A stretch of 64,000 nt of DNA from NCBI GenBank assembly GCA_963752475.1, contig CAVVYR010000029.1, forward strand, positions 178,689-242,688, in the 5' to 3' direction. This document shows, in pieces, positions 18,616-64,000 of this stretch (within the stretch, counting starts at the first letter, position 1; each line of letters starts with the position of its first letter). Under the pieces are notes generated by a model that was given only the letters and a program-made list of their open reading frames with translations, was not told the DNA's origin and did no database searches. Source of the DNA: an uncultured Chloroflexia bacterium (GTDB taxonomy: Bacteria; Chloroflexota; Limnocylindria; Limnocylindrales; CSP1-4). Position numbers and translations under genes: made by a program.

Positions 18616-19125
18616 ATGCCCGACCAGCCAGCCGCCATCGGCGGCAACGTCCGTGTACATCTGCTGCGTCACGCCCACGCCGGCGATGCCTTCGAGTGGA
18701 TCGGTGACGACGACCTGCGGCCGCTGACCAAGAAGGGCCGGCGACAGGCCGAGCGCCTGGGCGCGTTCCTCGAGGCACACGCGGTGCGTCCCGACGTCAT
18801 CTTCACCAGCCCCCTGGTGCGGGCGCGACAGACGGCGGAGATCGTGGCCGAGGCCCTGGGCATGACCATCAAGGTCGATCGGCGCCTGGGTAGTGGCTTC
18901 GGCCAGCGCGAGCTGTGGGCCCTGCTCGACGAAGCCGGCGCGCCCGAGATCCTGCTCGTAGGCCACGACCCCGATCTCTCGATGCTGCTGACCTACCTCA
19001 TCGACGCCGCCGGCATGAGCATGAAGAAGGGCACACTGGCTACGGTCGACCTGCACACCAAGCTCGGAGACGGCGAGGGTGAGCTGCGCTGGCTGGTACC
19101 GCCGGACCTGCTGACGACAAGCTAG
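18616..19125 (+). CDS. sixA: SixA-like histidine phosphatase
   Basis: LLRHAHA, RPLT..G, SPLVRARQT, LVGHDP. Confidence 0.85.
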   Translation: MPDQPAAIGGNVRVHLLRHAHAGDAFEWIGDDDLRPLTKKGRRQAERLGAFLEAHAVRPDVIFTSPLVRARQTAEIVAEALGMTIKVDRRLGSGFGQRELWALLDEAGAPEILLVGHDPDLSMLLTYLIDAAGMSMKKGTLATVDLHTKLGDGEGELRWLVPPDLLTTS

Positions 19126-20156
19126 GCGAAGGGCAGCGAGAAGCTGAAGGTCGAGCCTTCGCCTTCGCTGGACTCGAGCCAGATGGTGCCACCGTGGGCC
19201 TCCGCGATGTGTCGAGCGATCGACAGCCCCAGACCGGTCCCACCCTGGCCCCGGTGGCGTGCTCGGTCGACCTTGTAGAAGCGCTCGAACACGCGCCCCT
19301 GGTCCTCGGGCGCGATGCCGACCCCATGGTCGACGACAGAGACCACGGCCGAGTCGGGATGCTCGTCGACGGCCACCATGACCTCGCCACCATCAGGTGA
19401 GTACTTGATGGCGTTGTGCAGCAGGTTCAGCAGCAGCTGATCGAGGCGCTCCTCGTCGCCGCGCACCGGCGGCAGATCGTCAGGGACCCGCACGCTGAGG
19501 CTGACCCCCTGGCGATCGGCGAAGGTCTCGACGTGCCGCAGGCTGGCCTCGACGAGCGGACGCAGCTCGACCTCGTCACCGCGGACCTGCACGGCCGCAT
19601 TCTCCATGCGCGAGAGGTCGAGCAGCTCGTTGATCATCTGCACCAGATGGCCGCTCTCGACGTCGATGGTGGCGACGCGCTCGCGGACACGATCAGGGAC
19701 CTCGGCCTCGGCCAGCTCGTCGATGAGCATCTCGGTGAGCAGGCGGATGTTGGCCAGCGGTGTGCGCAGCTCGTGACTGAGGTCGTCGATGAGCTCGCTG
19801 CGGATGCGCCGCAGGCGCTGCAGTTCGGTCACGTCCTCGATCGTCACCCAGGCACCGCCACCGACCGCCGGCCGGGCCCACACGATGAGGCTGGCGCGGT
19901 CCGTCGCCTCCGGCTGATACGAGCCGCTCTGCCCCTGGCCGGCCGCGCGCACCAGCGCCTCGAGCCGATGGTCCACGAACGTCTGCATCACGGAACGCCC
20001 GAGCAGCGAACCGGGCCGACGCTCGAGCGCCTGGTGGGCCGCGACGTTGGCGATGCGGACCCGCAGGTCGGGACCGAACCGGATCAGCCCGATGGAGGCC
20101 TGGTCGGCGATCTCGACCATCTCCGCGGCGAGATGGTCGGGAAGGGCGTCTGGCAC
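19122..20156 (-). CDS. Sensor histidine kinase, PhoR/SenX3-like, apparently soluble
   Basis: PAS-like N terminus, SHELRTPL, NLLHNAIKYS, D.G.GI, FERFYKVD, GTGLGL; no evident transmembrane helix. Confidence 0.9.
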   Translation of the reverse strand: MPDALPDHLAAEMVEIADQASIGLIRFGPDLRVRIANVAAHQALERRPGSLLGRSVMQTFVDHRLEALVRAAGQGQSGSYQPEATDRASLIVWARPAVGGGAWVTIEDVTELQRLRRIRSELIDDLSHELRTPLANIRLLTEMLIDELAEAEVPDRVRERVATIDVESGHLVQMINELLDLSRMENAAVQVRGDEVELRPLVEASLRHVETFADRQGVSLSVRVPDDLPPVRGDEERLDQLLLNLLHNAIKYSPDGGEVMVAVDEHPDSAVVSVVDHGVGIAPEDQGRVFERFYKVDRARHRGQGGTGLGLSIARHIAEAHGGTIWLESSEGEGSTFSFSLPFA

Positions 20157-20163
20157 GAGCCTG

Positions 20164-20886
20164 TCAGTCCTCGGGCAGCCGCAGCACGTAGCCCACGCCG
20201 CGGACGGTCTGCAGGTACTGCGGCTGGCTGGGATCGGCCTCGATGGCCGAGCGTAGCCAGTGGACATGGACGTCCACCGTGCGCGTCTCGCCGGCATAGT
20301 CGTAGCCCCAGACCTTCTCCAGCAGCTGATCGCGGCTGAAGACCTGTCCCGGATTGCGCACGAGGAAGGCCAGCAGCTCGAAGGCCTTGGGCTTGACCGA
20401 CAGGTCGACCCCGTCACGTACCAGGCGGTGGCCGGCGAGATCGATGGTGACCGCATCGAGGTGGAGGAGCGCCGCATCAGGATCGGTGGTCGGCGAGGCC
20501 TCGGAGGTGGCCGCCGGAGCCGCGTCGAGCCGCCGCAGCTGTGCTCGGATGCGCGCCATCAACTCTCGCAGGCTGAAGGGCTTGGTGACGTAGTCATCGG
20601 CACCAAGCTCAAGGCCGACGACCTTGTCGATCTCGCCATCCTTGGCCGTGAGCATGATGATCGGCAGCGATGACTCGCGGCGCACGATGCGGCAGACCTC
20701 GATACCGCCCACCTGCGGCAGCATGAGGTCGAGCAGCATCAGGTCGGGGTCGACCGCCCGGAACTGCTCCAGTGCTTCCTTGCCGTCCGCGGCGGTGACG
20801 ACGTCGAGGCCGTCCTGCTCGAGGGCCTCGGCCAGCGTCTCGCGGAGCGTGGGCTCGTCATCGACGACGAGGATCGTGCGCGCCAA
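20164..20886 (-). CDS. OmpR-family response regulator, PhoB/RegX3-like
   Basis: ILVVDDE, LLDLMLP, GADDYVTKPF, TRTVDVHV, TVRGVGY; TTG start inferred. Confidence 0.9.
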   Translation of the reverse strand: MARTILVVDDEPTLRETLAEALEQDGLDVVTAADGKEALEQFRAVDPDLMLLDLMLPQVGGIEVCRIVRRESSLPIIMLTAKDGEIDKVVGLELGADDYVTKPFSLRELMARIRAQLRRLDAAPAATSEASPTTDPDAALLHLDAVTIDLAGHRLVRDGVDLSVKPKAFELLAFLVRNPGQVFSRDQLLEKVWGYDYAGETRTVDVHVHWLRSAIEADPSQPQYLQTVRGVGYVLRLPED

Positions 20887-20888
20887 CG

Positions 20889-21284
20889 TCAGTCGTCGAG
20901 CCGCTCGACCGGGCTCGGCGCCCGCATCCACCACTCACGGAAGTCGCAGCAACGGCCGTCATCGTCGAAGCGGCAGACGAAGATGTTGCTGAAGTCCTCG
21001 CGTCCCGCCTCGCGAAAGTAACGCGTGGAGCCCACGCCCACACAGACCTGGCCCTCGATGGCGAGGGGCTCGTACGCGGCCTCCCAATCGAGCTCGGGCT
21101 CGTATGCGGCTTCCAGCCAGTCCTTGACCACGGCCTCACGACCATCGACGACCGACTGTCCACCGGTCTGGCTGTAGGTCACGTCCTCGCTGAAGAGGTC
21201 ACCGATCTCGTCTGCATCGCCGCTACGCCAGGCCGCGATGTAGCGGTCCAGCCAGCTCGCGAAGTCGTCGCGCGTCAGGGTCAT
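20889..21284 (-). CDS. SnoaL-like / NTF2-like protein
   Basis: Y..AW..GD...IGDLFSEDV.Y and F.N.F...FD.DGRC..FREW pattern; AAGGAG RBS. Confidence 0.8.
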   Translation of the reverse strand: MTLTRDDFASWLDRYIAAWRSGDADEIGDLFSEDVTYSQTGGQSVVDGREAVVKDWLEAAYEPELDWEAAYEPLAIEGQVCVGVGSTRYFREAGREDFSNIFVCRFDDDGRCCDFREWWMRAPSPVERLDD

Positions 21285-21285
21285 G

Positions 21286-22788
21286 TCACTCCTTGGTGGG
21301 CAGGTCGGCGGCCTGCGCAGTGGCGGCCTTGAGGCGGTCGAGCGTGGTCGCATAGCCGATGGCGACCATGACGTCGAACAGCGGCGGGGTGGCCTTGCGC
21401 CCGGTGATGGCCACGCGGATGGCCATGAACAGGTCGCCCACCTTCCAACCATGCTCCTCGCACAGCGCTCGCAACGGTGCCTCCAGCCCCTCAGCCGTGA
21501 AGCCGTCGAAGCCCAGCTCCTCGATGACGCGGGCCGACTCGGCCAGTCCGCTCGCGGTCGTAGCCGGATCCCAGCGCTTCGGCACGAGGATGGCCGGATC
21601 TACGCTGAGGTCCTCGATGAAGACGAAGTCGAGCATGGGCCCGATGGCGTCGAGGCGCGGCAGGCGCTCGATGACCATGGGCAGCAGCGGCGCCACATCA
21701 GTCGCGGTGGGGATGCGCACTCGGTGTCCCTCTGCCTCCGCGGCCTGCACGGCGCTCACGAGGAACGGCAGGGCGCGCTCGACCACGTCATCCGTCGGCA
21801 ATCGGCGGATCCACTGCCCGTTGAGCCACTCGAGGCGCTCGGCATCGAAGATCGCGCCTGACGGCTGGACACGGGCCAGATCGAAGCGCGACTCCAGGTC
21901 CTCGAGGCTGAAGAGGTCCTCGTCCTCGCCGCTGTTCCAACCGAGTAGTGCGAGGTGGTTGACGATGGCTTCCTTTATGTAGCCTTGCTCACGATAGATG
22001 TCAATCGCGGTCTGGCTCTTGCGCTTGGACATCTTGGAACGGTCGGGGTTGAGGATCAGCGGCAGGTGCGCGAACACCGGCGGCTCCGCGCCCAGGGCCC
22101 GGAACAGCAGCACGTGCTTGGGCGTATTGGAGAGGTGGTCTTCGCCGCGGATGACGTGCGTGATGCCCATGGCCATGTCGTCGACGACGACCACGAAGTG
22201 GTAGAGCGGGCTCCCGTCCGAGCGAGCGATGACGAGGTCGCCGCCGAGCTGGGCGGTGTCGATGCTGACGTGGCCACGCACGAGGTCGTCGAACTCGACC
22301 GTGCCCTCACCGATGCGGAAGCGGGTCACCGACTCGCGGCCCTCGGCGCGTTTGGCCTCGCGCTGGGCCTCGGTCAGGTCGGCGCAGCGGCCGATGTAGC
22401 CGGAGAGGTCGGGGTCGGCTTCCTTATCCGCCGCGCGCTCTTCGGCCGTGCAGAAGCAGGGGTAGGCCTTGTCCTCGGACAGCAGGCGCTCGATGGCATC
22501 GGCGTACAGCGCACCGCGCTCGGACTGTCGATACGGACCGACATCCCCGCTCGCTGGGCGGCCGGCAAACTCGGGGCCCTCGTCCCACTCGAGGCCCAGC
22601 CAGTGCAAGCCGTCGAGGATATCCCGCTCGAACTCGACCGTCGAGCGGACCTTGTCCGTGTCCTCCAGCCGCAGCACGAACGTGCCGCCGGTCTGGCGTG
22701 CGAACAGGTAGTTGAAGAGGGCGGTCCGGGCCGTGCCGATGTGCAGGGGGCCGGTGGGGCTGGGCGCGATTCGGCAGCGCGTGGTCAT
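21286..22788 (-). CDS. gltX: Glutamate--tRNA ligase
   Basis: RIAPSPTG.LHIG, LRLEDTD, YRQSER, HVIRGEDH, KMSKR. Confidence 0.97.
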   Translation of the reverse strand: MTTRCRIAPSPTGPLHIGTARTALFNYLFARQTGGTFVLRLEDTDKVRSTVEFERDILDGLHWLGLEWDEGPEFAGRPASGDVGPYRQSERGALYADAIERLLSEDKAYPCFCTAEERAADKEADPDLSGYIGRCADLTEAQREAKRAEGRESVTRFRIGEGTVEFDDLVRGHVSIDTAQLGGDLVIARSDGSPLYHFVVVVDDMAMGITHVIRGEDHLSNTPKHVLLFRALGAEPPVFAHLPLILNPDRSKMSKRKSQTAIDIYREQGYIKEAIVNHLALLGWNSGEDEDLFSLEDLESRFDLARVQPSGAIFDAERLEWLNGQWIRRLPTDDVVERALPFLVSAVQAAEAEGHRVRIPTATDVAPLLPMVIERLPRLDAIGPMLDFVFIEDLSVDPAILVPKRWDPATTASGLAESARVIEELGFDGFTAEGLEAPLRALCEEHGWKVGDLFMAIRVAITGRKATPPLFDVMVAIGYATTLDRLKAATAQAADLPTKE

Positions 22789-23414
22789 GATCCGGGGTTC
22801 TCCTCTTCTTCGGCCGCGACCTTGCGTGCCTCGGCACCGGTCACTACCTGTGTCCCACGGTAGCGCCACACGCCCCGCGATGGAAGGTCATCGGTCCCGC
22901 GTCGGAAGTGCCGCCTGGCCGCCGCTGACCAGGCCGCACCACTCGACCGGTCGAAGACGTCGAAGTCGTCCGCTCGATCATCGTCGGGCTGTGCCTTCGA
23001 TGGTGCCTGGGGACGTGATCGCGAGCCGGGGCGGAAGTCCTCCCACCAGGGCACGTGCTCCGCCGACCAGGTCCGCGATCGTGGCGTCGACGAACGGGCA
23101 CGCCGCCGGAAGCGGGTGGAGCGCGGCCGTCGAGGCTTGGCCTCGGCGTCGGCCCCGGTCGTTCGCCGCCGGTTGCCCGCGGCTCGCACGGGCCCTGGGG
23201 CATGGACCCGATCCCACTCGCGGCGCCGGGCCGGATCGGAGAGCAGCTGGTAGGCCTCCTGCACCGCCAGGAACCGGATGTCGTCCCCGGAGCTGCCGTC
23301 CGGGTGGTACCGCTTGGCCAGCCGGCGGTGGGCGGCCTTGATCTGCTCGGGCGTGGCACCACGCAGGACGCCGAGCACGCGATAGGGGTCGAGAACCGGC
23401 TTGACGCGGGCCAT
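22785..23414 (-). CDS. J-domain (DnaJ-like) protein with Arg-rich tail
   Basis: DPYRVLGV, IKAAHRRLAKRYHPD, EAYQLLSDP.RR; ATGA overlap with gltX. Confidence 0.85.
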   Translation of the reverse strand: MARVKPVLDPYRVLGVLRGATPEQIKAAHRRLAKRYHPDGSSGDDIRFLAVQEAYQLLSDPARRREWDRVHAPGPVRAAGNRRRTTGADAEAKPRRPRSTRFRRRARSSTPRSRTWSAEHVPWWEDFRPGSRSRPQAPSKAQPDDDRADDFDVFDRSSGAAWSAAARRHFRRGTDDLPSRGVWRYRGTQVVTGAEARKVAAEEEENPGS

Positions 23415-23436
23415 GGGTGGTTGCTCGTTAGCCTCG

Positions 23437-24615
23437 CTAGCCGTCCTGCTCCCGCCCGACCAGATCGAAGCTGGGCACGGCGGTGGCTGCCTCTTCCCCG
23501 TTGGGCGCGAAGGCGGTGGGGTGGTGATAGCCCGCGAGCATGCGCAGGTCACGCTCATCGAACAAGCCGATCTGGGCCAGGACCTCCACCGAGGTGGCCT
23601 TGACGGCCCGACGTGACTGGTCCCCGTCCTCGATCTTGATGGCGATGCCACCAGCCTCGGTGCCCGCACCGGCGATCAGGCCGATGGCGCGGATGCCGTC
23701 TGCACCGGCCTTGGCCACCAGTCGTCCGGGGCGTCGACGCATGAGCTCCGTATCGAGGTTGTCGTAGGTGCCGCCGACCATCTCCGGCGAGCCGATCATG
23801 GCGTCGCGCACGCGCAGCAGCGCCGGCGCCGATCCAGCCTGTTCGTCTTCGACCGTGGGCCCCTCGGGATCGGCCAGCATGAGGTAGGCCCGAGCCATCT
23901 CCAGCAGCGAGATCTCATACGTCAGCAGGCCGCAGTTGTCGGTCGCGACCTTCAACCCGTCGGGGTCTCGTGCCAGCAGGCGGGCGACCGTGTCGCGTAC
24001 GGCCACTTGGCTGGGGTGCCTGGAATCGGCATAGTCGCCCACCGACCAGCCGGCGTAGGCGCTCATCAGGATCGATGCGGCGTGGAAGCCGGAGCACCCG
24101 TGGCGGACCGCCCCGGGCGTCTCACCGTCGCGCGCGAGGCGGGCCGCGGTCTGGACATCAGCCGGAGCGCCATCCGTGCCGCACTGCAGCAGGGCCTGGG
24201 TCACGCTGGCACGGCGGAAGATGGCCTGCAGCGTGCGGACGTGCTTGTCCTCGCCGGTATGCGAGGCGCACATGATGGCCAGCTCGGACGCCGTCAGCTT
24301 GAGATCGTCAGCGGCGCCGGATTCGATGAGGGCCACGACGCCGAAGGGCTTCACCGTCGAGCGCATCATGACCTCGGTGGCTGGAGCACCGACCGCGTGG
24401 AGCACCTTGCCCTGGGCATCGACCTGCACGATGTGACCGCGGTGGCGGCTCTCCACGGTCGAGCCGCGGCGGACCTCCACGAGCACCGGCGGCGCCGAAC
24501 CCTTGCGCGTTCGAGAGCTGCGCTTGCGCTTGCGGGGGGTGGCGGCCTCGGTTGCTTCTTCGGGCTCTGCAGCCGCGTCACTGCTGTCGCCCGGGAGGGC
24601 CGGTTGTTCAAGCAC
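23437..24615 (-). CDS. Asparaginase II (Rhizobium etli-type) family protein
   Basis: VESRHRG, RSTVKPF, CASHTGE, CSGxH, D.CG, KAGADG, KIEDG; start supported by TACCAT 6 nt upstream. Confidence 0.85.
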   Translation of the reverse strand: MLEQPALPGDSSDAAAEPEEATEAATPRKRKRSSRTRKGSAPPVLVEVRRGSTVESRHRGHIVQVDAQGKVLHAVGAPATEVMMRSTVKPFGVVALIESGAADDLKLTASELAIMCASHTGEDKHVRTLQAIFRRASVTQALLQCGTDGAPADVQTAARLARDGETPGAVRHGCSGFHAASILMSAYAGWSVGDYADSRHPSQVAVRDTVARLLARDPDGLKVATDNCGLLTYEISLLEMARAYLMLADPEGPTVEDEQAGSAPALLRVRDAMIGSPEMVGGTYDNLDTELMRRRPGRLVAKAGADGIRAIGLIAGAGTEAGGIAIKIEDGDQSRRAVKATSVEVLAQIGLFDERDLRMLAGYHHPTAFAPNGEEAATAVPSFDLVGREQDG

Positions 24616-55647: not shown

Positions 55648-56277
55648 GTGGCCTCACGGAACCAGCGGGCGGCCAATGCCTCCTACTACCGACGCAACCG
55701 GACGTTCGAGACACAGCGAGTGCGGATCCGGCAGGATGCGACGCGCGACCATCTGCGCGAACTCCGACGGGTGCCGTGTCGGGACTGCGGTGGCGTCTTC
55801 GAGCCGCACCAGATGGACTTCGACCACCGGGACCCGGCCGCGAAGTCGTTCCGCCTCACCTCCGGTACGGCGATGCTGGCTTCTGGCGGCCGCCTCGATG
55901 CAGAGCTCCACAAGTGCGACATCGTGTGTGCGAACTGCCACCGTGTGCGTACGCGAAGCCGTCGTGGTGCCGCGCCTCGCGCCGACGCATCACCAGAACT
56001 CGAGCGGAAGCGCCGCTACTGGCGCGCACAGATCAAGATGCTCGAGCAACTCAAGGATCGACCATGTGACGACTGCGAGGGCTACTACCCGAGCTGTGCC
56101 ATGGACTTCGACCATCGTGATCCGCGGCAGAAGCGCTACACCGTCAGTCGCATGGTCGGCCGCGCCGGAACCGCGCGGATCCTGGCTGAGGTAGCCAAGT
56201 GCGATATCGTGTGTGCGAACTGCCATCGTGATCGCACATACCGGCGACGCGAGGCGGGTTCCTTCGAGCGGGAGTAG
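55648..56277 (+). CDS. Tandem HNH-like endonuclease domain protein
   Basis: Two copies of PCxDC...MDFDHRDP..K...E..KCDIVCANCHR.RT; TATACT 7 nt before GTG; stop codon inside tRNA. Confidence 0.8.
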   Translation: MASRNQRAANASYYRRNRTFETQRVRIRQDATRDHLRELRRVPCRDCGGVFEPHQMDFDHRDPAAKSFRLTSGTAMLASGGRLDAELHKCDIVCANCHRVRTRSRRGAAPRADASPELERKRRYWRAQIKMLEQLKDRPCDDCEGYYPSCAMDFDHRDPRQKRYTVSRMVGRAGTARILAEVAKCDIVCANCHRDRTYRRREAGSFERE

Positions 56278-56343
56278 CTCAGTTGGTGGAGCGCCAGCCT
56301 TCCAAGCTGGATGTCGCGGGTTCGAATCCCGTCTCCCGCTCCA
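56268..56343 (+). tRNA. tRNA-Gly(TCC)
   Basis: 76-nt cloverleaf: GCGGGAG/CTCCCGC acceptor, CCAGC-CTTCCAA-GCTGG anticodon arm, GGTTCGAATCC T arm, U73, encoded CCA. Confidence 0.97.
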
Positions 56344-56435
56344 ATCCTCTCTTTCACGCTTGAAACGACGTCATAACTGCGTGAGGTCGCTGTTCTGGTC
56401 GTTGCCGCAACACTCCCAGACACGACGATCGGCCC

Positions 56436-56840
56436 ATGGAGACGAGGACCGTTGCGGACCCGACAATCGGCAACTACGAGGAACTGGTCGCGTCGTGGCG
56501 CCTCGCTCTGAGGGCTGAGAACAAGTCCCCGAGCACCCTCGTGTCGTACCTCTCGGCAGCCGATGAACTCGGCCGCTACCTCGCGGAACATGGGATGCCG
56601 CGACGGCTCGCCGCTATCCGGCGCGAGCATGTCGAGTCGTGGGTGGCCGACCTTGCGACCCAGCAGTTCTTCCGCTGGGCGGCCGAGGAAGGGGAGATCG
56701 ACGAGTCGCCGATGGCGCGAATGCGACCACCTATCGTGCCCGAGGAGCCTCCGCGGGTCCTCGCCGAGGGCGAGCTCGAGCGGCTGCTCGCGACGACAAA
56801 GGGTCGGGGGTTCGCCACCAGCAGCGGGTCATGCGTCTGA
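56436..56840 (+). pseudogene. Truncated tyrosine recombinase/integrase (core-binding part only)
   Basis: L.AENKSP.T..SY, FFRW..EEGEI..SPM, P.VL...EL..LL; no catalytic R-H-R-Y domain. Confidence 0.8.
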
Positions 56841-56939
56841 TCTCGGTGTCCGCCTTGGCGCTGCTGCCCAAGGCTGTCGCCCCCGTTGCCGTCTGGGACG
56901 ACGCAGGGGGCGACAGGTCGTTTCGCGCGCGACGCCTGG

Positions 56940-57959
56940 TCAGTACTCGACGAGCCCTTCGAACACGATCGAGACGGGGTGCGGGATGGTGGGCAGGCCT
57001 TCTTCGTCGTAGCCGGAGTTGGTGACGGTGCCGGTGAAGCTGATCTGCCCGCTGGCCCCTTCGAACTGTCCCGTGCCGCCGGTCACCTCGGCCATCGACA
57101 CGCAGAGCCATTCGGCCCCGACCTCCTCGACCCAGCTCGGGATGCAGTCGCCGGGTCCGGCGACCGTGATGCTGTCCCCGGCGTCGTTGCTGAACGTGGT
57201 CGTCCCGCCGTGCATGTTCGCGAGGACGTCTTCCGGCGCGTAGCAGTTCTGGAAGACCACAGAGGTCGGGCCCAGAAGTGTCGACTCGCCCGTGGCGGTC
57301 ATGACGCTCGTGAAGCCGATCTCACAGCCAGCCGGGTTCTCGAGGTCGGCGACCATCTCGCCCTCGGCACTGCCGACCATGAGCGGGTTCGCGACGGCAT
57401 CGGTCTCTTCCTGCGGCGCCGCCGCGACCTCAGCGCCGGGCGCCTCCGGGAACGGGGGCAGCTCGCCCGGGTAGACCATGCCCTCGAGATCGAAGCCGCT
57501 GCCGTTGTCCAGTTGGAACAGGATAGCTGAGAGGCCTTCGTAGGCACCCTCGCCGGCCAGCTCGCCGAGCAGGTAGATCTGCGCGTCGTTCGCGGTGGTG
57601 TAGCCGCGGAACGTGCCGCGCCAGGAGCCGAGCTCGTTGTCGATGCCGATAAGGCCGGCGACCACGGACCCCTGGCTGTCGAGGTACCTGTCGTCGTTCC
57701 AGATGGCCCAGGACTCTCCGCTGAGGCGTGGGTCACCCGTGTCGATGGTCCCGCCGAAGCCGTAGTCCCGAACGAGCATCCGATCCTCCTCGAAGAAATA
57801 GGGCGTCGGATCGGTCACGACCGGATACGGCATGGTGCCGCTCAGGAGCGCGCTCTCGGTCGTGACCGGAGCATCCGACTGGGCCACCGTCACGGCGGCG
57901 ATGCCGCCGAGCAGGCCAAGGATGAGCGCTCCCGCCATCGAGAGTCGTACGGTACGCAT
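56940..57959 (-). CDS. Secreted two-domain hypothetical protein
   Basis: Signal peptide; DPRLSG...GEGAYEGL domain followed by a 4-Cys GGTGQFEGASG domain. Confidence 0.8.
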   Translation of the reverse strand: MRTVRLSMAGALILGLLGGIAAVTVAQSDAPVTTESALLSGTMPYPVVTDPTPYFFEEDRMLVRDYGFGGTIDTGDPRLSGESWAIWNDDRYLDSQGSVVAGLIGIDNELGSWRGTFRGYTTANDAQIYLLGELAGEGAYEGLSAILFQLDNGSGFDLEGMVYPGELPPFPEAPGAEVAAAPQEETDAVANPLMVGSAEGEMVADLENPAGCEIGFTSVMTATGESTLLGPTSVVFQNCYAPEDVLANMHGGTTTFSNDAGDSITVAGPGDCIPSWVEEVGAEWLCVSMAEVTGGTGQFEGASGQISFTGTVTNSGYDEEGLPTIPHPVSIVFEGLVEY

Positions 57960-57980
57960 GGCGTCTTCCCCCTGTTCGTC

Positions 57981-58057
57981 AGCGGGTCGGGTTCGCCAGT
58001 GGCTCGGCACGACCCAGGCGGCCAACGTACGCGAGTCGTGCCTCGCAGCCTCCCGCT
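57981..58057 (-). ncRNA. c-di-GMP-II-like riboswitch aptamer (variant), copy 1
   Basis: P1 AGCGGG/CCCGCT, P2 GGC/GCC, tandem GA kink-turn, P3 GGCACGACT/GGTCGTGCC, pseudoknot CGCC/GGCG; ends 21 nt before ATG. Confidence 0.75.
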
Positions 58058-58063
58058 ACCTGG

Positions 58064-58154
58064 ATGGGACATCGGACCGGCCCCGGCTTTCCGAAAACAG
58101 TCAGTGAGCCGATCGAGATGGATCGGGAAAGCCGGACGCTTGAGCGTGACCCAT
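58064..58154. promoter_or_regulatory. Pair of divergent ECF-type promoters GGAAAG-N16-G(T/A)CCCAT
   Basis: Minus strand 58092-58064 and plus strand 58126-58154 share GGAAAGCCGG and identical spacing. Confidence 0.6.
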
Positions 58155-58226
58155 ACCATAGAGAGGACCGCGACCAGCGCGGCCCCGTGGTCGGATGCGA
58201 AGACCTCCGGCCCGATGGATGGGGGC

Positions 58227-58790
58227 ATGGACCAGGACTTGGTTGTCCGGGCGCAGCACGGCGACCAGCGGGCCTTCGAGGCCCTGGCGCTTGCCGACAG
58301 CCCTCGCCTGCACCGCGTGGCCTACGGCATCCTGCGTGACTCCGAGTCGGCCGAGGACGCGACCCAGCGAGCCCTCGTCGACATCTGGCGCGACATCGGC
58401 CGCCTCCGCGATCCGGCCAGGTACGAGGCCTGGTCGTACCGGCTCCTCGTCCATGCCTGCTACCGGGAGGCCCGGCAACGGCGTGACCTGCCATGCATCA
58501 CGGACGTCGCCGACGTGCAGGCGCCCGCTGCGGCCGGCGCCTTCCGCCAGGTCGACGACCGCGACCAGCTGGAACGCGGGTTCCGACAGCTTTCGGTGGA
58601 GCATCGGACGGTCATCGTGCTGCGCTGCCTCCTCGACCTGCCGATGGAGCAGGTGGCCGAGGCGCTCGGCGTCGCGCCCGGCACCGTCGGCTCCCGGCTC
58701 CACCGTGCGCTCCGAGCCATGCGAGCGGCCCTGGAGGCCGACGAGCGGACCACGACGAGCCACGGACTGCAGCGCGAGGCGGTCAGATGA
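58227..58790 (+). CDS. ECF RNA polymerase sigma factor
   Basis: GD..AF..L, AEDATQ, region 4 L....R.VI.L......VAEALGV..GTV.SRL.RA. Confidence 0.9.
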   Translation: MDQDLVVRAQHGDQRAFEALALADSPRLHRVAYGILRDSESAEDATQRALVDIWRDIGRLRDPARYEAWSYRLLVHACYREARQRRDLPCITDVADVQAPAAAGAFRQVDDRDQLERGFRQLSVEHRTVIVLRCLLDLPMEQVAEALGVAPGTVGSRLHRALRAMRAALEADERTTTSHGLQREAVR

Positions 58791-60142
58791 ACGACGAACA
58801 GCTGCTGCACGACCTCGGTTCATGGCTGAAGGACACGGACACCGCCCATCCCGACGCCGAACGCATAACGGCGCGGGCGATGAGCCAGGTGCCACAGGTC
58901 CGCCAGCGCGGACGCTGGTGGCCGTTGCCGGCGCTCGATCGCGGGAGCCCGCCTGCGCCTGCCTCGGGGTCGACGGTGTTCTCCGCACTGCGGTTCGTGG
59001 CCGCGGGCATCATCATCGGGCTGTTCGGCGGCTTCCTGCTCGCCAGCGTCCTCACCACGCCGCCGATGGAGCAGGCCCCAGCTGCGGCGACCGACTCACC
59101 CGTCCCCGTGACGACCGAGGAGCTGCTCTCGACCGCGGCGACCGAGGAGATCGAACCCGGGCTCCTGCGGGTCGTCGACGATGGCATCCGGGACCTCGCC
59201 ACGGCCGACACCATCAGCCTCGTCAGTGGGCGGGACGGCAGCATCTGGCTGCTGTCGGAAGACCACCTCCTCCGAGTCGGCGCCGACGGGACGTATGGGT
59301 GGCCATCGGAGCTGGCCGGGCCTGTGAGCGAGTTCGAGGTCGCCCCCGACGGCACTGTCTGGATCGTGGGCGCGGGCGAGGACGGCGTCTCGACGCTTTG
59401 GTCCTTCGAGGGCGCACGGTGGACCCGCCACGGGCCGACCTCGGATACCCGCGCCATCGAGATCGCCGACGACGGCACGATCTGGGCCTTCTGGCAGGAC
59501 CAGGGGTCGGAGACGGTCAGCCTCGGCTACCTCGCCGGCGACGAGCGGCACCCCATCGGGGAGTGGCAGGAGGGTCGGGTGCACGGCGGACACCTCTACC
59601 TGTCCGGGTCGGACGACGTCTGGATCGCCGGAGCCCCGGCGCACCGGGAGGGCAAGCCCGAGCTCTATCGCCTCGTCGATGGGACCCTGCAGCAGGAGTA
59701 CGCAGCTACCGTCGTGGCCGCCGACGTGGGCGCAGATGGTACGGCCTGGTTCGTCTCGCTCGACGAGCTCGTCCGACTGGACGCGGCCGCCGGGGATGCC
59801 GAGCCCGAGTCGTGGGCGCTGCCCGGATCGATGACCGCCGAGTGGGGCAGCATGCCGTGGTGGACGTTCCTGCCCGGCGATGCCTTCAGGGCCGCGCCCA
59901 ACGGCAGCGTCTGGTTCGCGCTGCGGGCCGAGTCCGGGCCGCCCGTCCCGGAGGTGGCCTGTGGCGGGATCGCGGGCTTCGACGGCACGACATGGCTGGG
60001 CCCGTTCCTGCCGGACCGGTGTGTCGAGTCCATCCAGCTGGCCGCCGACGGCTCGGTCTGGCTGCTGGCCCGCGACGCGGAGCATGCCGATGACCTCGTC
60101 GATCTCTTCGTCATCGACCCGGAGGCCGCGGCCGCCGCTTGA
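58787..60142 (+). CDS. Putative anti-sigma factor: short cytoplasmic domain, one TM, extracellular beta-propeller-like domain
   Basis: ATGA overlap with the sigma gene; repeated (A)PDG(T/S)VW blades. Confidence 0.75.
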   Translation: MNDEQLLHDLGSWLKDTDTAHPDAERITARAMSQVPQVRQRGRWWPLPALDRGSPPAPASGSTVFSALRFVAAGIIIGLFGGFLLASVLTTPPMEQAPAAATDSPVPVTTEELLSTAATEEIEPGLLRVVDDGIRDLATADTISLVSGRDGSIWLLSEDHLLRVGADGTYGWPSELAGPVSEFEVAPDGTVWIVGAGEDGVSTLWSFEGARWTRHGPTSDTRAIEIADDGTIWAFWQDQGSETVSLGYLAGDERHPIGEWQEGRVHGGHLYLSGSDDVWIAGAPAHREGKPELYRLVDGTLQQEYAATVVAADVGADGTAWFVSLDELVRLDAAAGDAEPESWALPGSMTAEWGSMPWWTFLPGDAFRAAPNGSVWFALRAESGPPVPEVACGGIAGFDGTTWLGPFLPDRCVESIQLAADGSVWLLARDAEHADDLVDLFVIDPEAAAAA

Positions 60143-60160
60143 CCGGCCGGGGCCCAGTGC

Positions 60161-60709
60161 TCAGGAGCCGACGAGACCCTCGAAGAGCATCATGGCCCGG
60201 ACGTCTCCCGGTGCCGCGTCGGGATGGTCGGACTGGGCGTTGAAGGTGTAGGCGATCGCGTGGATCTCACCGCTCGCACCCTCGAAGACGCCGGTCCCCC
60301 CGGTGATGATGGTCGTGCCCCAGCAGCTGTAGAAGCCACCGGGCTCCGGGACGTCATCAGGGATGCAGTCGCCGCTTGCGGTCCCGGCCAGGGTGTCACC
60401 GCTCTCGAAGGTGTAGGTGATGGTACCGAGCTGGACGTTGTCGAGCGTGTCGGTCGGGACGTAGCAGTTCACCTGCCTGATGGTGATCGCGCCGAGCTGT
60501 GGCGACTCGCCGTAGGCCGTCACCTCGCTGGTCATGCCGATGTCGCAGCCGAGTGGGTTGTCCTCGTTGGGGTGGAGGTAGCCCTCCGCCTCGCCGGAGA
60601 AGTACTGCCGAGCGTCGTCGGCGCCCTCCTGGCCCAGCCCGACGCTCGACGCGCCGAGCAGCAGGATCGCAGTGGCCGTGCCGGTCGCCACCAGCCTGAT
60701 CGCTCGCAT
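60161..60709 (-). CDS. Secreted hypothetical protein, paralog of the C-terminal domain of 56940-57959
   Basis: Signal peptide; shared NP.GC.IG.TS, NCY.P, GDCIP, GGTG.FEGASG.I, FEGLV. Confidence 0.8.
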   Translation of the reverse strand: MRAIRLVATGTATAILLLGASSVGLGQEGADDARQYFSGEAEGYLHPNEDNPLGCDIGMTSEVTAYGESPQLGAITIRQVNCYVPTDTLDNVQLGTITYTFESGDTLAGTASGDCIPDDVPEPGGFYSCWGTTIITGGTGVFEGASGEIHAIAYTFNAQSDHPDAAPGDVRAMMLFEGLVGS

Positions 60710-60729
60710 GCAGTTCCCCCTCGATGCAG

Positions 60730-60805
60730 GCGGGTCGGGTTCGCCAGTGGCTCCCCGCGGCCCAGGCGGCCATCTTCAACGGGCCGCGCGTCGATGCCTC
60801 CCGCT
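60730..60805 (-). ncRNA. c-di-GMP-II-like riboswitch aptamer (variant), copy 2
   Basis: Same core as copy 1 with compensated P3 (CGCGGCCC/GGGCCGCG); ends about 20 nt before ATG. Confidence 0.75.
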
Positions 60806-61165
60806 ACGGCGATTCTCTCGCGGGTGTCCATTGCGATCCGGAACGCCATGGATCGCGGGTCTTGTCTGGTCGTCGCCGCCATGGCGAGCGCCTGATGCCG
60901 TCCCTGCCTCGGTCGGCGGCGGATTCGATCGTCGATGCCGGGAGTGCCTCGACCGGCCGCTACCAGATGCCAGATGAAGCCCCGGGGGGCTCGATCGGGG
61001 GTGCCGGCCGGCGCTCATGCCGCGGGACCTCGATCGACCAACGGCCCGGTCGACCGAGTCACCGGGGGCAGGACCGAGGCGAGGGCACGGGGAACGAGAG
61101 ACGCCTCGCGCCCGTACCACAGCCGACCCCGCCGGTCATCGAGCGGCCACGGCGGCCGTGCCGCA

Positions 61166-61673
61166 TGTGACTCCAGGGTGAGGCGCGCATGATGCGGCCA
61201 TGGACCGAGATCGGACCCTGCCCGAGCGACCGGCACGCCGGACGTTCAGCGCCGAGTACAAGCAATGCATCCTCGATGAGTACGAGGCCGCCACCGAGGA
61301 GGGCGCTATCCTGCGCCGGGAGGGTCTCTGTACCTCGCACATCACCGAGTGGCGCCGGGCCCGTGACGCGGGCGCCCTCGCCGGCCTGGCGCCGAGGCCG
61401 AGACCCCGCGCCAAGTCACCCGAGCAGCGCGAGCTGGTCCGCCAGCGGCGTCGTGCCGAGCGGGCCGAGGCCGAGCTGGCCAAGGCCCGCCTGGTCATCG
61501 ACATCCAAGGAAAAGCATCGGAGCTCTTGGAGCGGCTGCTGGCCGAGAGCGACGAGGACGAGAAGCAGTCGCGGTGATCGACGCCGCGTTCGAGACGCTG
61601 GAGCCGCTGGTGGGTACGTCGGGAGCGTGCGCCGCAGAGCATCGCGCGACCGTGTGTCTCATCGCGCTTGACA
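61166..61673 (+). mobile_element. Internally deleted IS3-family element
   Basis: OrfA present; OrfB reduced to a short N-terminal stub; tentative TG...CA imperfect ends. Confidence 0.6.
61200..61577 (+). CDS. IS3-family transposase OrfA
   Basis: RRTFSAEYK..IL.EY, GAILRREGL..SHI..WRR, coiled coil, VIDIQGKASELL. Confidence 0.8.
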   Translation: MDRDRTLPERPARRTFSAEYKQCILDEYEAATEEGAILRREGLCTSHITEWRRARDAGALAGLAPRPRPRAKSPEQRELVRQRRRAERAEAELAKARLVIDIQGKASELLERLLAESDEDEKQSR

Positions 61674-61763
61674 GGTTCCGTCGCTGCAGCCTTGTGGGAC
61701 ACCATAACTGGACGTGATCCGCTCCGGGGTCTGAGCACGGTGCCACTGCGCTCAGGCGTTTCG

Positions 61764-61810
61764 GCCTTCCAAGCTGGATGTCGCGGGTTCGAATCCCGTC
61801 TCCCGCTCCA
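61764..61810 (+). repeat. attR-like copy of the 3' 47 nt of tRNA-Gly
   Basis: Exact match to 56297-56343; lacks the 5' acceptor strand and D arm. Confidence 0.92.
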
Positions 61811-61878
61811 CCCCCTGTTGTATCTGGGTGGGAATCCATGCCGCGTGAGCTGGCACGACGGCCGAGCAGTCTCGGTCC

Positions 61879-63993
61879 ATGCCACGCACGAAGGCCGATC
61901 CCACCGTCGTCCGACCACCATGTCCCGAGCACCCCGGCAGCCGGGTCCGACTGGACGGCTATCGAAACTGCCGCTGGAGCCCAGCGCATCGGCGACCGAG
62001 ATATCGGTGTGTGACCGTGCCGGGCACCCGCGGCCACTCGTTCAGCCTGCCCGTCGCGGTGCGCCAGCCGACCGAGGAGCATCCCGACTCGGGCGCGGGA
62101 TGCCCGACGTGCGACCGCCTGTATGGCCGCGACGAGGGGGTGCCGACCGGCCGTGGCTTCGTGTTCGGACACGCCGAGATCGCCCGCCTCTTCCTGCGGG
62201 TCGGCGAGGGCATGAGCCTGCGCGCCGCGAGCCAGGATCTGCGCGCCGCGGTCCTCCGCTCGGACGGCCCCGACACTAGCCGCCAGGCGAACCTCGCGGT
62301 CGACTACCTCGACGCCTTCGCGCCGGCCATCGTGGACGCCCTCCACCCGACGGCCTGGCCGCGGGTCGTCGTCCTCGACTCGCGGACCCTCTTCACGCGG
62401 AGCTATCGGGCCAGCCGGGCCGCTGGCGACGGCGGACCCGACGAGGCCTGGGTCGCGGAGCAGAAGGCGGGCACGATCCTCGTCGCGCTCGACGGCACGA
62501 GCGTCCGTCCGCGACCCTGCCTCATGCGCGTCGCGGGAGCCAAGGACACCGAGAGCTGGAAGGCGTTGTTCGCCACCCTCACCGGCCGGCCCGACGTGGT
62601 CGTGGCCGATCTCGATGCGGCCATCGCCCGCGCCGTGCGGGAGACCTGGCCGGCCGCGATCCTCGTGCCCTCGCGCCATCATCTCGCAGCGCTCATGCGC
62701 GAGCGGGCCCTCGCCGACGGCGTGCCCGCACGGGCCCGGACCGAGACGCCGCTCCCGCTCCCCCGACCCCTGCCCTGGACCGGCGAGCGCACGAAGCGCT
62801 GGATCGAGCATCCGCTCCACGCGGCGATGCTCGGTGCCCTGCGCGGGCCCGAGGCGTGGGCCGCCTTCGAGGCGCTCGTCGAGCGCCATGTGCCACCCGA
62901 CCGACTGGCGCTGCGAGGCTGGATGGCCACGAACGAGCCGCTCGTCCGCCGCGGCTGGGAGATCGCCGCCCGACATCCCGACCTCCCCCGCTCGACGGGT
63001 TCGCTCGAGGGCGCCATCGGGGAGTGGCTGGCGCCCATCGCCCGGCGCGCCGGGCGCTGGCAGAACGCGCGGCGGCTCGATCTCGTGCTGGCGCTCATGA
63101 CCCTGCGCGCGCGGGGCGAGGCGCGAGAGGCGCGCTATGCCCGCATCGTGCGCGATGCCTTCGCGGTCCACGGCAACCGCTCCCATGTCGCGGAGCCGGC
63201 GTCGTCATCGACCGCGCGGCCGGCGATCGGTTGGTGGCGGACATGGAAGGACCACGGCGAGCCGTCGCTGCCGCGGCTCGTGCGCGAGGCCGACCGTCGC
63301 TGGCGCCGGCGTGCCGTCGATGACCATGCCGCCCGGGTCAAGGAGCGCCTCGCCGAGCGCTACGCCACCGAGGCTGACCTGCGCACCCGGCTCGATCTGC
63401 CCACGCCGCCGTCGGGGCGACCGCGACGAGCACACGCCCGACGGGCGGGTGACTCGGTCCGGGGCCGGCGCCTGTCGGACTACCCCGAGCTCGTGGCCGA
63501 GTGGGCCTGGGACGTCAACGGCGAGCTCGATCCCACGACGCTCGCGGCGGGCTCGGCCGAGCGGGTCGCCTGGCGCTGCCTGCTCGAGCCCGCCCATGTC
63601 TGGGAGACGCGGGTCTCGAGCCGCACCGCCGGGGGCACCGGCTGCCCCTTCCACATGGGCATCCGGGTCCACCCCGCCGAGTCGCTCGCGGCCTTCTTCC
63701 CCTGGCTCGCGCAGGAGTGGCACCCCGAGCGCAACGACCTGCGGCCCGACCAGGTCACCCGGGCCTCGGCACGCAGGGTGGTCTGGCACTGCGAGTCCGG
63801 TCACGAGTGGGAGGCCGCCGTCTACCAGCGGACGCTGTCGGGCTCCGGCTGTCCCGAGTGCTATCGCCGCGAGGCCGATGTTCGTTCGAGGGCCGGGCGG
63901 GCGCGTGCCCGCCGTGCCAAGGACGAGGCCGAGGCCGAGGCCGCCAGGATCATCCGCCTCGGCGAACGCCTCTCGGGTGGCGAGGCCGGCTGA
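61879..63993 (+). CDS. DDE transposase-like protein (IS256/Mutator-like) fused to two DUF4379-type zinc ribbons
   Basis: N-terminal Cys/His finger and HTH (GMSLRAAS); VVVLD167, VVVAD244, SxxH, STGSLE377; two PxLxxEW...N...W.C...H.W...R...GCP repeats. Confidence 0.7.
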   Translation: MPRTKADPTVVRPPCPEHPGSRVRLDGYRNCRWSPAHRRPRYRCVTVPGTRGHSFSLPVAVRQPTEEHPDSGAGCPTCDRLYGRDEGVPTGRGFVFGHAEIARLFLRVGEGMSLRAASQDLRAAVLRSDGPDTSRQANLAVDYLDAFAPAIVDALHPTAWPRVVVLDSRTLFTRSYRASRAAGDGGPDEAWVAEQKAGTILVALDGTSVRPRPCLMRVAGAKDTESWKALFATLTGRPDVVVADLDAAIARAVRETWPAAILVPSRHHLAALMRERALADGVPARARTETPLPLPRPLPWTGERTKRWIEHPLHAAMLGALRGPEAWAAFEALVERHVPPDRLALRGWMATNEPLVRRGWEIAARHPDLPRSTGSLEGAIGEWLAPIARRAGRWQNARRLDLVLALMTLRARGEAREARYARIVRDAFAVHGNRSHVAEPASSSTARPAIGWWRTWKDHGEPSLPRLVREADRRWRRRAVDDHAARVKERLAERYATEADLRTRLDLPTPPSGRPRRAHARRAGDSVRGRRLSDYPELVAEWAWDVNGELDPTTLAAGSAERVAWRCLLEPAHVWETRVSSRTAGGTGCPFHMGIRVHPAESLAAFFPWLAQEWHPERNDLRPDQVTRASARRVVWHCESGHEWEAAVYQRTLSGSGCPECYRREADVRSRAGRARARRAKDEAEAEAARIIRLGERLSGGEAG

Positions 63994-64000
63994 GCGGCAT

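Follow-up and report, generated by a model that had tools for sequence, protein, structure and literature searches.

An uncultured Chloroflexia bacterium (GTDB lineage Bacteria; Chloroflexota; Limnocylindria; Limnocylindrales; CSP1-4) carries an open reading frame (ORF) of 704 amino acids (aa) at the end of a 64,000-nucleotide (nt) stretch of DNA (positions 178,689 to 242,688 of contig CAVVYR010000029.1, assembly GCA_963752475.1; hereafter the window). The ORF starts 68 nt after the CCA end of a partial copy of a transfer RNA (tRNA) gene for glycine. The question raised by this locus is whether the gene belongs to a mobile element that seeks out tRNA genes or lies beside one for some other reason. 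A preliminary sequence-only reading had proposed either a new type of single-gene transposon, with C-terminal zinc ribbons that select targets such as tRNA genes, or a domesticated nuclease derived from a transposase. The observations described here are very probably explained jointly by an autonomous insertion sequence of ~2.2 kb, which runs from position 61811 to ~29 nt past the contig end, encodes one DDE transposase of the IS256/Mutator type with an added helix and two DUF4379 zinc ribbons, and inserts after the CCA of tRNA genes.

Element ends and target sites

Related loci, 29 from species-representative genomes and 52 from metagenomes, were compared. Their left ends align from a shared CCCCCTGTTTTATCTG..TGGGAAT (CCCCCTG) inward, with no similarity outward; beyond the left ends the loci are unrelated to one another, except that many are tRNA genes. 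The left-end sequence recurs inverted past the stop codon, and the two ends of a copy share private variants; altogether, the gene is enclosed by terminal repeats of this type in 85 related loci. Such co-varying inverted ends were present in 20/20 loci in which both end motifs were found. A total of 128 element termini were located in 86 sources. The inverted repeats are ~25–45 nt long, and the units measure 2.2–2.4 kb (two are longer). Some contigs end precisely at an element terminus, and two are exactly one element long (L014, 2241 nt; L018, 2302 nt). Frameshifted or stop-bearing copies (L016, L023, L026–L031) and miniature derivatives were also observed; the miniatures are 340 bp with a remnant of the ribbon-coding part (L002 and L006, genome G014) or ~190 bp (L102 and L105, genome G441).

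The 8-bp target duplication is perfect in 11 and has one mismatch in another 11 of the 39 copies with both flanks readable. Three of the four miniatures are located at tRNA ends (Asn, Gly, and Ile), and the fourth, L102, lies at a gene end, a non-tRNA site, with the perfect 8-bp duplication CGCTGAGG; the length of the duplication is therefore independent of the tRNA. The features by which an insertion sequence is recognised, namely a transposase gene between inverted repeats, a target duplication, and insertion at different sites, were all found, with the window contributing the left repeat only. The family represents a genuine insertion sequence and neither a chimera nor a domesticated gene. 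In agreement with the single-gene transposon proposed at the outset, it combines inverted repeats and 8-bp duplications with many sites, miniatures, and decayed copies.

The junction sequence NNNNNCCA, or its complement TGGNNNNN, was detected at 106/118 ends with a flank of at least 12 nt, as compared with 2836/20000 (14%) random positions drawn from the same sequences. An intact tRNA 3′ end adjoins 33 of the 118 ends, 21 left and 12 right, which indicates insertion in either orientation. These counts confirmed the expectation that homologues would be non-randomly placed at tRNA 3′ ends. At 101 termini the flank is 90 nt or longer; of these, 32 are located at an intact tRNA 3′ end facing the element, 7 at a tRNA 3′ fragment retaining the T-arm, and 33 show TGGNNNNN, the complement of the tRNA end, as expected beyond the 8-bp duplication. 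The other 29 (15 classed as 'CCA only' and 14 as 'other') include, by eye, several one-mismatch or shifted versions.

The target tRNAs represent 12 amino-acid specificities. They include those for Arg (three anticodons), Gly (two), Asn, Ala, Val, Pro, Lys, Ser, and Cys, as well as tRNA-Ile and a Gln-like end; a few insertions lie at non-tRNA sites. Where the duplication is perfect and the tRNA is present, the duplication corresponds to the final 8 nt of the tRNA, and for this reason the tRNA gene stays whole. The genome of the window has 50 tRNA genes, 48 of which encode CCA, and the chance that a random site falls within 6 nt after a tRNA end is ~7e-5. In three loci (L047, L056, and L087), two different variants of the element stand in tandem with exactly the 8-mer between them, the arrangement that repeated hits on one tRNA end produce. 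The tRNA association extends to relatives at 45–53% identity, with L067 located at tRNA-Arg and L026, L150, L063, L073, and L077 at tRNA-Val. The clade, down to ~45% protein identity, inserts almost exclusively right after the encoded CCA, in either orientation.

Several ends, including that in the window, adjoin tRNA 3′ remnants of just 16–47 nt, and a 16-nt piece without the T-loop is present at the ends of L011, L035, L065, L031, L037, and L088. In the right flank of L011 and the left flanks of L035 and L065, the 16-nt piece of tRNA-Arg is located behind its near-inverted copy and the inverted native downstream flank; this palindromic arrangement is seen in three diverged contigs. A transfer-messenger RNA was considered for the flanks of L020 and L021, and none was detected there by ARAGORN -m or Rfam, the latter calling the L020 flank a partial tRNA. 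The sequence CCCTGTTT after tRNA-Ser on contig C13 of the window's own genome turned out to be just the spacer to the next tRNA. On contig C10 of the same genome, the same tRNA-Gln 3′ end (..CCTCGCCAGCCA) occurs three times in ~5 kb (18947–24010), and CCTCGCCAGCCA recurs at the very end of the contig, ~1.8 kb further. The pattern is typical of tandem islands at one tRNA, and the same kind of end flanks the L020 and L021 elements.

The transposase and its relatives

The 704-aa protein is laid out as follows (residue numbers):

~12–98: N-terminal Cys/His region
99–158: helical DNA-binding region (predicted)
160–440: DDE core with helical insertion
463–505: long helix
~535–600 and 603–663: two DUF4379 ribbons, followed by a basic C-terminal helix

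An AlphaFold2 model was built from a 36-row alignment (mean predicted local distance difference test score 75.5, with the core mostly >90). The best match of the model in the PDB, according to Foldseek, was the ISCth4 transposase of the IS256 family (6xgx_A, E 3.9e-8), followed by DUF4379 mitoribosomal proteins, matching the C-terminus, and then by the Hermes and P-element transposases and retroviral integrases. Alignment to ISCth4 with VIA-align gave a Z score of 14.6 and a root-mean-square deviation of 4.8 Å for 265 aligned residues (model residues 95–414). Against retroviral integrase cores, Z was ~11 over residues 160–413 with ~120 residues aligned, in keeping with an RNase H core that a helical insertion interrupts. 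A sequence profile of 44 distant relatives (A2) also retrieved ISCth4 from the PDB (6xg8_A, E 0.0052). The central region, suspected from the sequence to be a DDE transposase, was thus modelled as an RNase H core with a helical insertion that is closest to ISCth4, and the helix at 463–505 occupies the position of the helical linker described earlier, between the core and the ribbons.

D167, D244, D246, and E377 are invariant in 36 close homologues. In the 44 distant relatives, D167 never varies and conservation reaches at least 90% at D244, H268, and E377, so that the D167/D244/E377 triad read from the sequence is retained at both ranges. The motif S265-R-H-H268 occupies the position at which the wider family has the consensus C-E-x-H and is accordingly the probable equivalent of C/DxxH, as had been supposed. 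At the N-terminus, C15, H18, C44, H53, H68, C75, and C78 are invariant in the close homologues. The stored public product for the contig has 660 aa (P0002); because residues 1–44 are conserved in homologues, the start giving 704 aa is the better call. The two C-terminal ribbons were identified by Pfam as DUF4379 (PF14311; E 9.2e-33, 112.7 bits against a cut-off of 24.5) in two stretches, the best at 610–663. Their residues C567, H573, C589, H592, C638, H642, and C658 are invariant in the close homologues, and C661 is at least 90% conserved.

The 704-aa protein (P0001) reaches no curated cut-off for a transposase model in Pfam or NCBIfam. No match to PF00872 or NF033543 was obtained at E ≤ 1, and the curated IS256 cut-offs are not reached. 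The scores for ISL3 (PF01610, 12.7 bits against 23; NF033550, 17.8 bits against 180) and for the IS1249 group (NF033544, 16.5 bits against 300, with weak matches in 20/44 relatives) are likewise below cut-off. Among distant relatives, 11/46 reach the 21-bit cut-off of PF00872 (Transposase_mut) and 3/46 that of MULE, and 23/44 match NF033543 (IS256) weakly at E ≤ 0.01 (best E 4.5e-10). PHROGs gave just weak endonuclease-family matches over one ribbon, and the PADLOC defence-system models gave no match. The DDE core is IS256/Mutator-like, and the proteins constitute a previously unrecognised clade of the IS256/Mutator superfamily.

The resemblance to the IS256 family covers the DDE/RNase H core with a helical insertion, for which ISCth4 is the best structural match; a probable counterpart of the C/DxxH motif after the second Asp (C-E-x-H in the wider family and S-R-H-H in this clade); and a single ORF between inverted repeats with an 8-bp target duplication. 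The target duplication of IS256 is 8–9 bp. The clade differs from the family in its size (~700 aa, in comparison with 401–410 residues in the ISCth4 chains, and an element of 2.2–2.4 kb), the added C-terminal helix and two DUF4379 ribbons, the Ser that replaces Cys/Asp in the motif, the targeting of tRNA gene 3′ ends, and scores below the curated family cut-offs.

A word-indexed search returned 203 homologues of the 704-aa protein. The 120 listed have identities of 59–100% (59–87% apart from the window's own product), are nearly all full length, and all contain PF14311. They come from Chloroflexota, Limnocylindrales, and Actinomycetota bins and are labelled 'zinc-ribbon domain-containing protein', 'Probable Zinc-ribbon domain', or 'hypothetical protein' in public records. 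In an exhaustive search, 540 cluster representatives matched residues 1–560 at E ≤ 1e-3, and these include 600–900-aa forms at 27–43% identity and 400–460-aa forms without the C-terminal part. Pfam detected DUF4379 in 35/46 distant relatives scanned. With this figure and the 203 homologues, the fusion is neither a one-off nor a chimera, two outcomes against which the sequence-only reading had cautioned.

The distribution over genomes is patchy. The gene was matched in 8/401 genomes of a phylum sample, and the family profile in 40/401 genomes of a bacterial-family sample. In a genus-and-order sample, 5/41 genomes matched (G000 included), with fragments only outside the window's genome, and in 24 other genomes of the genus the search returned no full-length gene, only fragments. 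In a plasmid collection, matches were limited to the ribbon part (query residues 524–665), with no plasmid-borne copy of the transposase. The plasmid matches belong to multi-copy 'zinc-ribbon domain-containing proteins' of Bacillus, Rhodococcus, and Streptomyces, the ribbons of which are 39–46% identical and occur in several places per record, up to 20. The PDB relatives of the ribbons are DUF4379 proteins of trypanosome mitoribosomes.

A sister clade at 30–34% identity has its own inverted repeats of 28–40 nt, and its alignment to the present clade runs through both ribbons. In the clade-2 loci L112 and L113, no inverted repeats could be assigned with confidence. Other relatives show diverse sites. 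The ribbon-less L116 has a 4-bp duplication in a palindromic site, and L121 has an 8-bp duplication 100 bp from tRNA-Pro. L115 (= L093; genome G276) encodes a ribbon-less 560-aa relative in a 2383-bp element with inverted repeats of 27–36 nt and sits in the loop of a GC-rich hairpin, with the flanks GCGGGCGGC ... GCCGCCCGT. From this site, L115 possibly represents a different, structure-directed target habit within the same superfamily.

The copy in the window

The window covers the final 64 kb of C29, one of 38 contigs in the genome bin. The features at its end are listed below (positions in the window, strand).

56268..56343, +: intact tRNA-Gly(TCC) gene; the final 47 nt (56297..56343) are repeated at 61764..61810
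61764..61810, +: tRNA-Gly 3′ remnant, from the anticodon stem to CCA; target remnant adjoining the element
61803..61810, +: CCGCTCCA, the expected 8-nt target site duplication; in relatives the duplicated bases are the tRNA's final 8 nt
61811..61837, +: left terminal inverted repeat CCCCCTGTTGTATCTGGGTGGGAATCC, which aligns with related left ends and inverted right ends
61838..61856, +: imperfect palindrome of the GTGCCA..(GAG)..TGGCAC type, following the left repeat and preceding the start codon
61879..63993, +: transposase gene, 704 aa, ATG start, intact ORF
63481..63867, +: encodes both treble-clef zinc ribbons (DUF4379, PF14311)
63994..64000, +: contig tail, 7 nt past the stop codon; window and contig C29 end together

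ARAGORN found a single tRNA in the window, the intact tRNA-Gly(TCC), and blastn showed that 61764..61810 is an exact copy of its 3′ part (47/47 identical). The first base of the element, 61811, is one past the copied CCA end at 61810, and the ORF at 61879..63993 is present at the distance from the CCA that was originally noted. An element end beside a tRNA 3′ fragment is an arrangement that recurs in other loci, and CCGCTCCA itself is present as the duplication in L006 and L016. The ORF is intact and keeps every family-invariant residue, as judged from the reference row of the 36-homologue alignment. The palindrome, searched for as a strict pattern in the related loci, matched 21/68 left ends and 0/56 right ends; it may serve as an operator or a 5′ RNA hairpin in the control of transposase production.

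The right inverted repeat is outside the window, as contig C29 stops 7 nt past the stop codon. In L037, the protein of which is 83% identical, the right terminus is 36 nt past the stop, and hence ~29 nt with the right repeat are missing from the window copy. The final 9 nt of contig C36 in the same bin are the complement of CCGCTCCA plus one base, and the extra base fits an element terminus and not a tRNA; the end of C36 is thus likely to be the right flank of the window copy. One public sequencing run holds the window sequence, and one of its contigs extends 29 nt past the window end; the contigs of the run are short pieces, in which the left junction is not bridged and the right end is not shown. 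The left repeat is the sole such end in this genome by end-motif scan, and no further copies or right end were found there by blastn, tblastn, or the end-motif scan.

Between the two 47-nt copies of the tRNA-Gly 3′ part, which form a direct repeat, lies a 5.4-kb segment (56344–61763). It contains a gene for a sigma factor of the extracytoplasmic function type (57999–58790), and in its four other scanned ORFs no Pfam family, and no integrase family either, was detected. The segment looks like a decayed or integrase-less island at tRNA-Gly. A repeat from the anticodon stem to CCA has what we take to be the classic form of an att site, which makes an old integration at tRNA-Gly plausible. Either the element entered the intact tRNA-Gly and the segment was integrated later, or the element entered the remnant directly.

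Target recognition and comparison with known systems

A working scheme for insertion can be drawn from these features. Dimers of the transposase would bind the inverted repeats via the N-terminal zinc/helical region, and an added DNA-reading surface would dock the complex on the T-arm/acceptor end of the tRNA gene DNA. For this surface the tandem ribbons are the leading candidate, probably with clade-specific residues elsewhere. Docking would fix an 8-bp spacing between the two strand transfers, which would span the final 8 nt of the tRNA. Movement may be by copy-out/paste-in as described for IS256-family enzymes, of which ISCth4 is one (PMC7780238, excerpt).

Several observations weigh against this picture of a tRNA-directed insertion sequence. 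Seventeen of the 39 copies with readable flanks have non-matching ones, mostly two different tRNA-type ends, and in L021, L038, L039, L041, and L044 tRNA 3′ ends face both ends of the element; we tentatively attribute such mismatched flanks to short-read assembly through a 2.3-kb repeat or to recombination between copies, either of which would produce them. The window's genome, with a single copy of which the right end is unassembled, does not in itself demonstrate activity of this copy, and the suggested copy-out/paste-in route is drawn by analogy, from family resemblance only. The sister clade carries both ribbons and has a tRNA in 0/12 loci, with clean 8-bp duplications at unrelated sites (L149, CCGCTGGC; L153, TGTGCGGC). 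Identity between the two clades is flat, at 31–38% in all domains and 23% in the linker, so that no domain stands out as more diverged and the per-domain values give no pointer to a changed domain.

The observations on the sister clade bear on an alternative that shares the element and its tRNA targeting and gives the ribbons a role in end binding, synapsis, or regulation, with the tRNA end recognised by another part of the transposase, by DNA structure, or by a host factor. We regard this as a serious possibility, though one falling somewhat short of an even chance. As the ribboned sister clade sits at non-tRNA sites, ribbons alone are insufficient for tRNA targeting, and the flat divergence between clades speaks for the alternative, as do the several ends that adjoin the 16-nt tRNA piece without a T-loop; if the element entered such sites after truncation, the determinant would be very small or structural. 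On the other side, the ribbon-less short relatives have a tRNA in 0/8 loci and are thus likewise away from tRNA ends, so that the ribbons could be required without being enough by themselves. Moreover, tandem domains distantly related to CapR, DUF4379, and DUF723 in phage homing endonucleases are taken to be likely modular DNA-binding domains that add specificity (PMC12350094, excerpt). Thus, of the initial suggestion that the ribbons select tRNA targets, insertion at tRNA ends holds, while selection by the ribbons alone does not.

A more adventurous reading, to which we assign little probability, is that the target is found through RNA: the ribbons would hold the 3′ part of a mature tRNA, which would pair with its own gene and so place the transpososome at the end of the hybrid. 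The idea is suggested by analogy, because the only solved relatives of the ribbons sit in mitoribosomal assembly complexes. If true, it would explain hits at the same base in at least a dozen unrelated acceptor sequences, the element at tRNA 3′ remnants of 16–47 nt, the free orientation, and the different habit of a sister clade with the same ribbons.

Two further explanations would remove targeting or mobility altogether, and we consider both very improbable. The tRNA adjacency would be indirect if the element rode in tyrosine-recombinase islands and did not itself prefer any target; the copy in the window and several more do lie beside tRNA 3′ fragments such as integrating islands leave behind, and contig C10 of the same genome has the repeated tRNA-Gln 3′ ends typical of tandem islands. 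However, no base separates the CCA from the element termini, and the duplicated 8 bp are the tRNA's own final 8 nt; 33 ends are at intact tRNA genes of many kinds and in both orientations, miniatures without any island show the same placement, and the 5.4-kb segment of the window yielded no integrase family. A nuclease or regulator domesticated from a transposase and by now immobile would accord with the single intact copy in this genome and with strong conservation (59–87% identity among the listed homologues besides the window's product), but the full-length gene was not found in the 24 other genus genomes searched and no defence model matched. For the family, the inverted repeats, target duplications, varied sites, miniatures, and decayed copies contradict the domesticated nuclease envisaged at first. 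The tRNA-directed insertion sequence remains the reading that we favour.

Prokaryotic users of tRNA ends include tyrosine-recombinase islands and phages, some casposons, and Tn7-like elements. They share with the present element a conserved, multicopy, and safe landing site at the tRNA 3′ end. Their enzymes are a tyrosine recombinase, Cas1, or TnsABC with a target selector, whereas a single DDE protein is encoded here, and they leave longer att repeats or other offsets in contrast to the 8-bp duplication. Other DUF4379 proteins, mitoribosomal or plasmid-encoded, match the ribbons and lack the transposase part.

By description, the closest functional parallel appears to be Dada, a group of eukaryotic DDE transposons with a distant likeness to MuDR, hAT, P, Kolobok, and IS256 and with a DxxH motif (Kojima and Jurka 2013; PMC3706591, excerpt). 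Dada families insert at fixed sites in tRNA and small nuclear RNA genes with a short target duplication. The likeness would be functional and architectural, comprising zinc fingers at both the N- and C-terminal sides, a DDE transposase, and tRNA-gene targeting. Dada differs in being eukaryotic, with introns, proteins of ~1400 aa, and duplications of 6–7 bp, and in inserting inside RNA genes and not after the last base as here (PMC3706591, excerpt). In a 2014 survey of prokaryotic Mutator-like transposases, the term 'tRNA' is absent from the main text, and its supplementary tables could list relatives (PMC3942029, main text). The literature searched, which excluded ISfinder and the supplements of papers, yielded no tRNA-targeting IS256-like element and no DUF4379 transposase. 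What is new here is thus an IS256/Mutator clade with a tRNA-end-specific insertion habit, undescribed in that literature.

To our knowledge, few single-protein DDE transposases of bacteria choose a harmless site with such precision; the tRNA-end users known so far depend on tyrosine recombinases, Cas1, or the multi-protein Tn7 system. Here an element of one gene lands past the last base of many tRNA genes and leaves them unbroken, in parallel to Dada and to the tRNA-targeting retrotransposons. With so compact an element, the reading of a tRNA gene by a transposase could be studied, and it is a candidate for safe-site insertion tools. The finding also relabels a protein family of many metagenomes and genomes (540 cluster representatives) that has hitherto been named zinc-ribbon or hypothetical, and the element may account for some of the contig breaks at tRNA genes in these genome bins.

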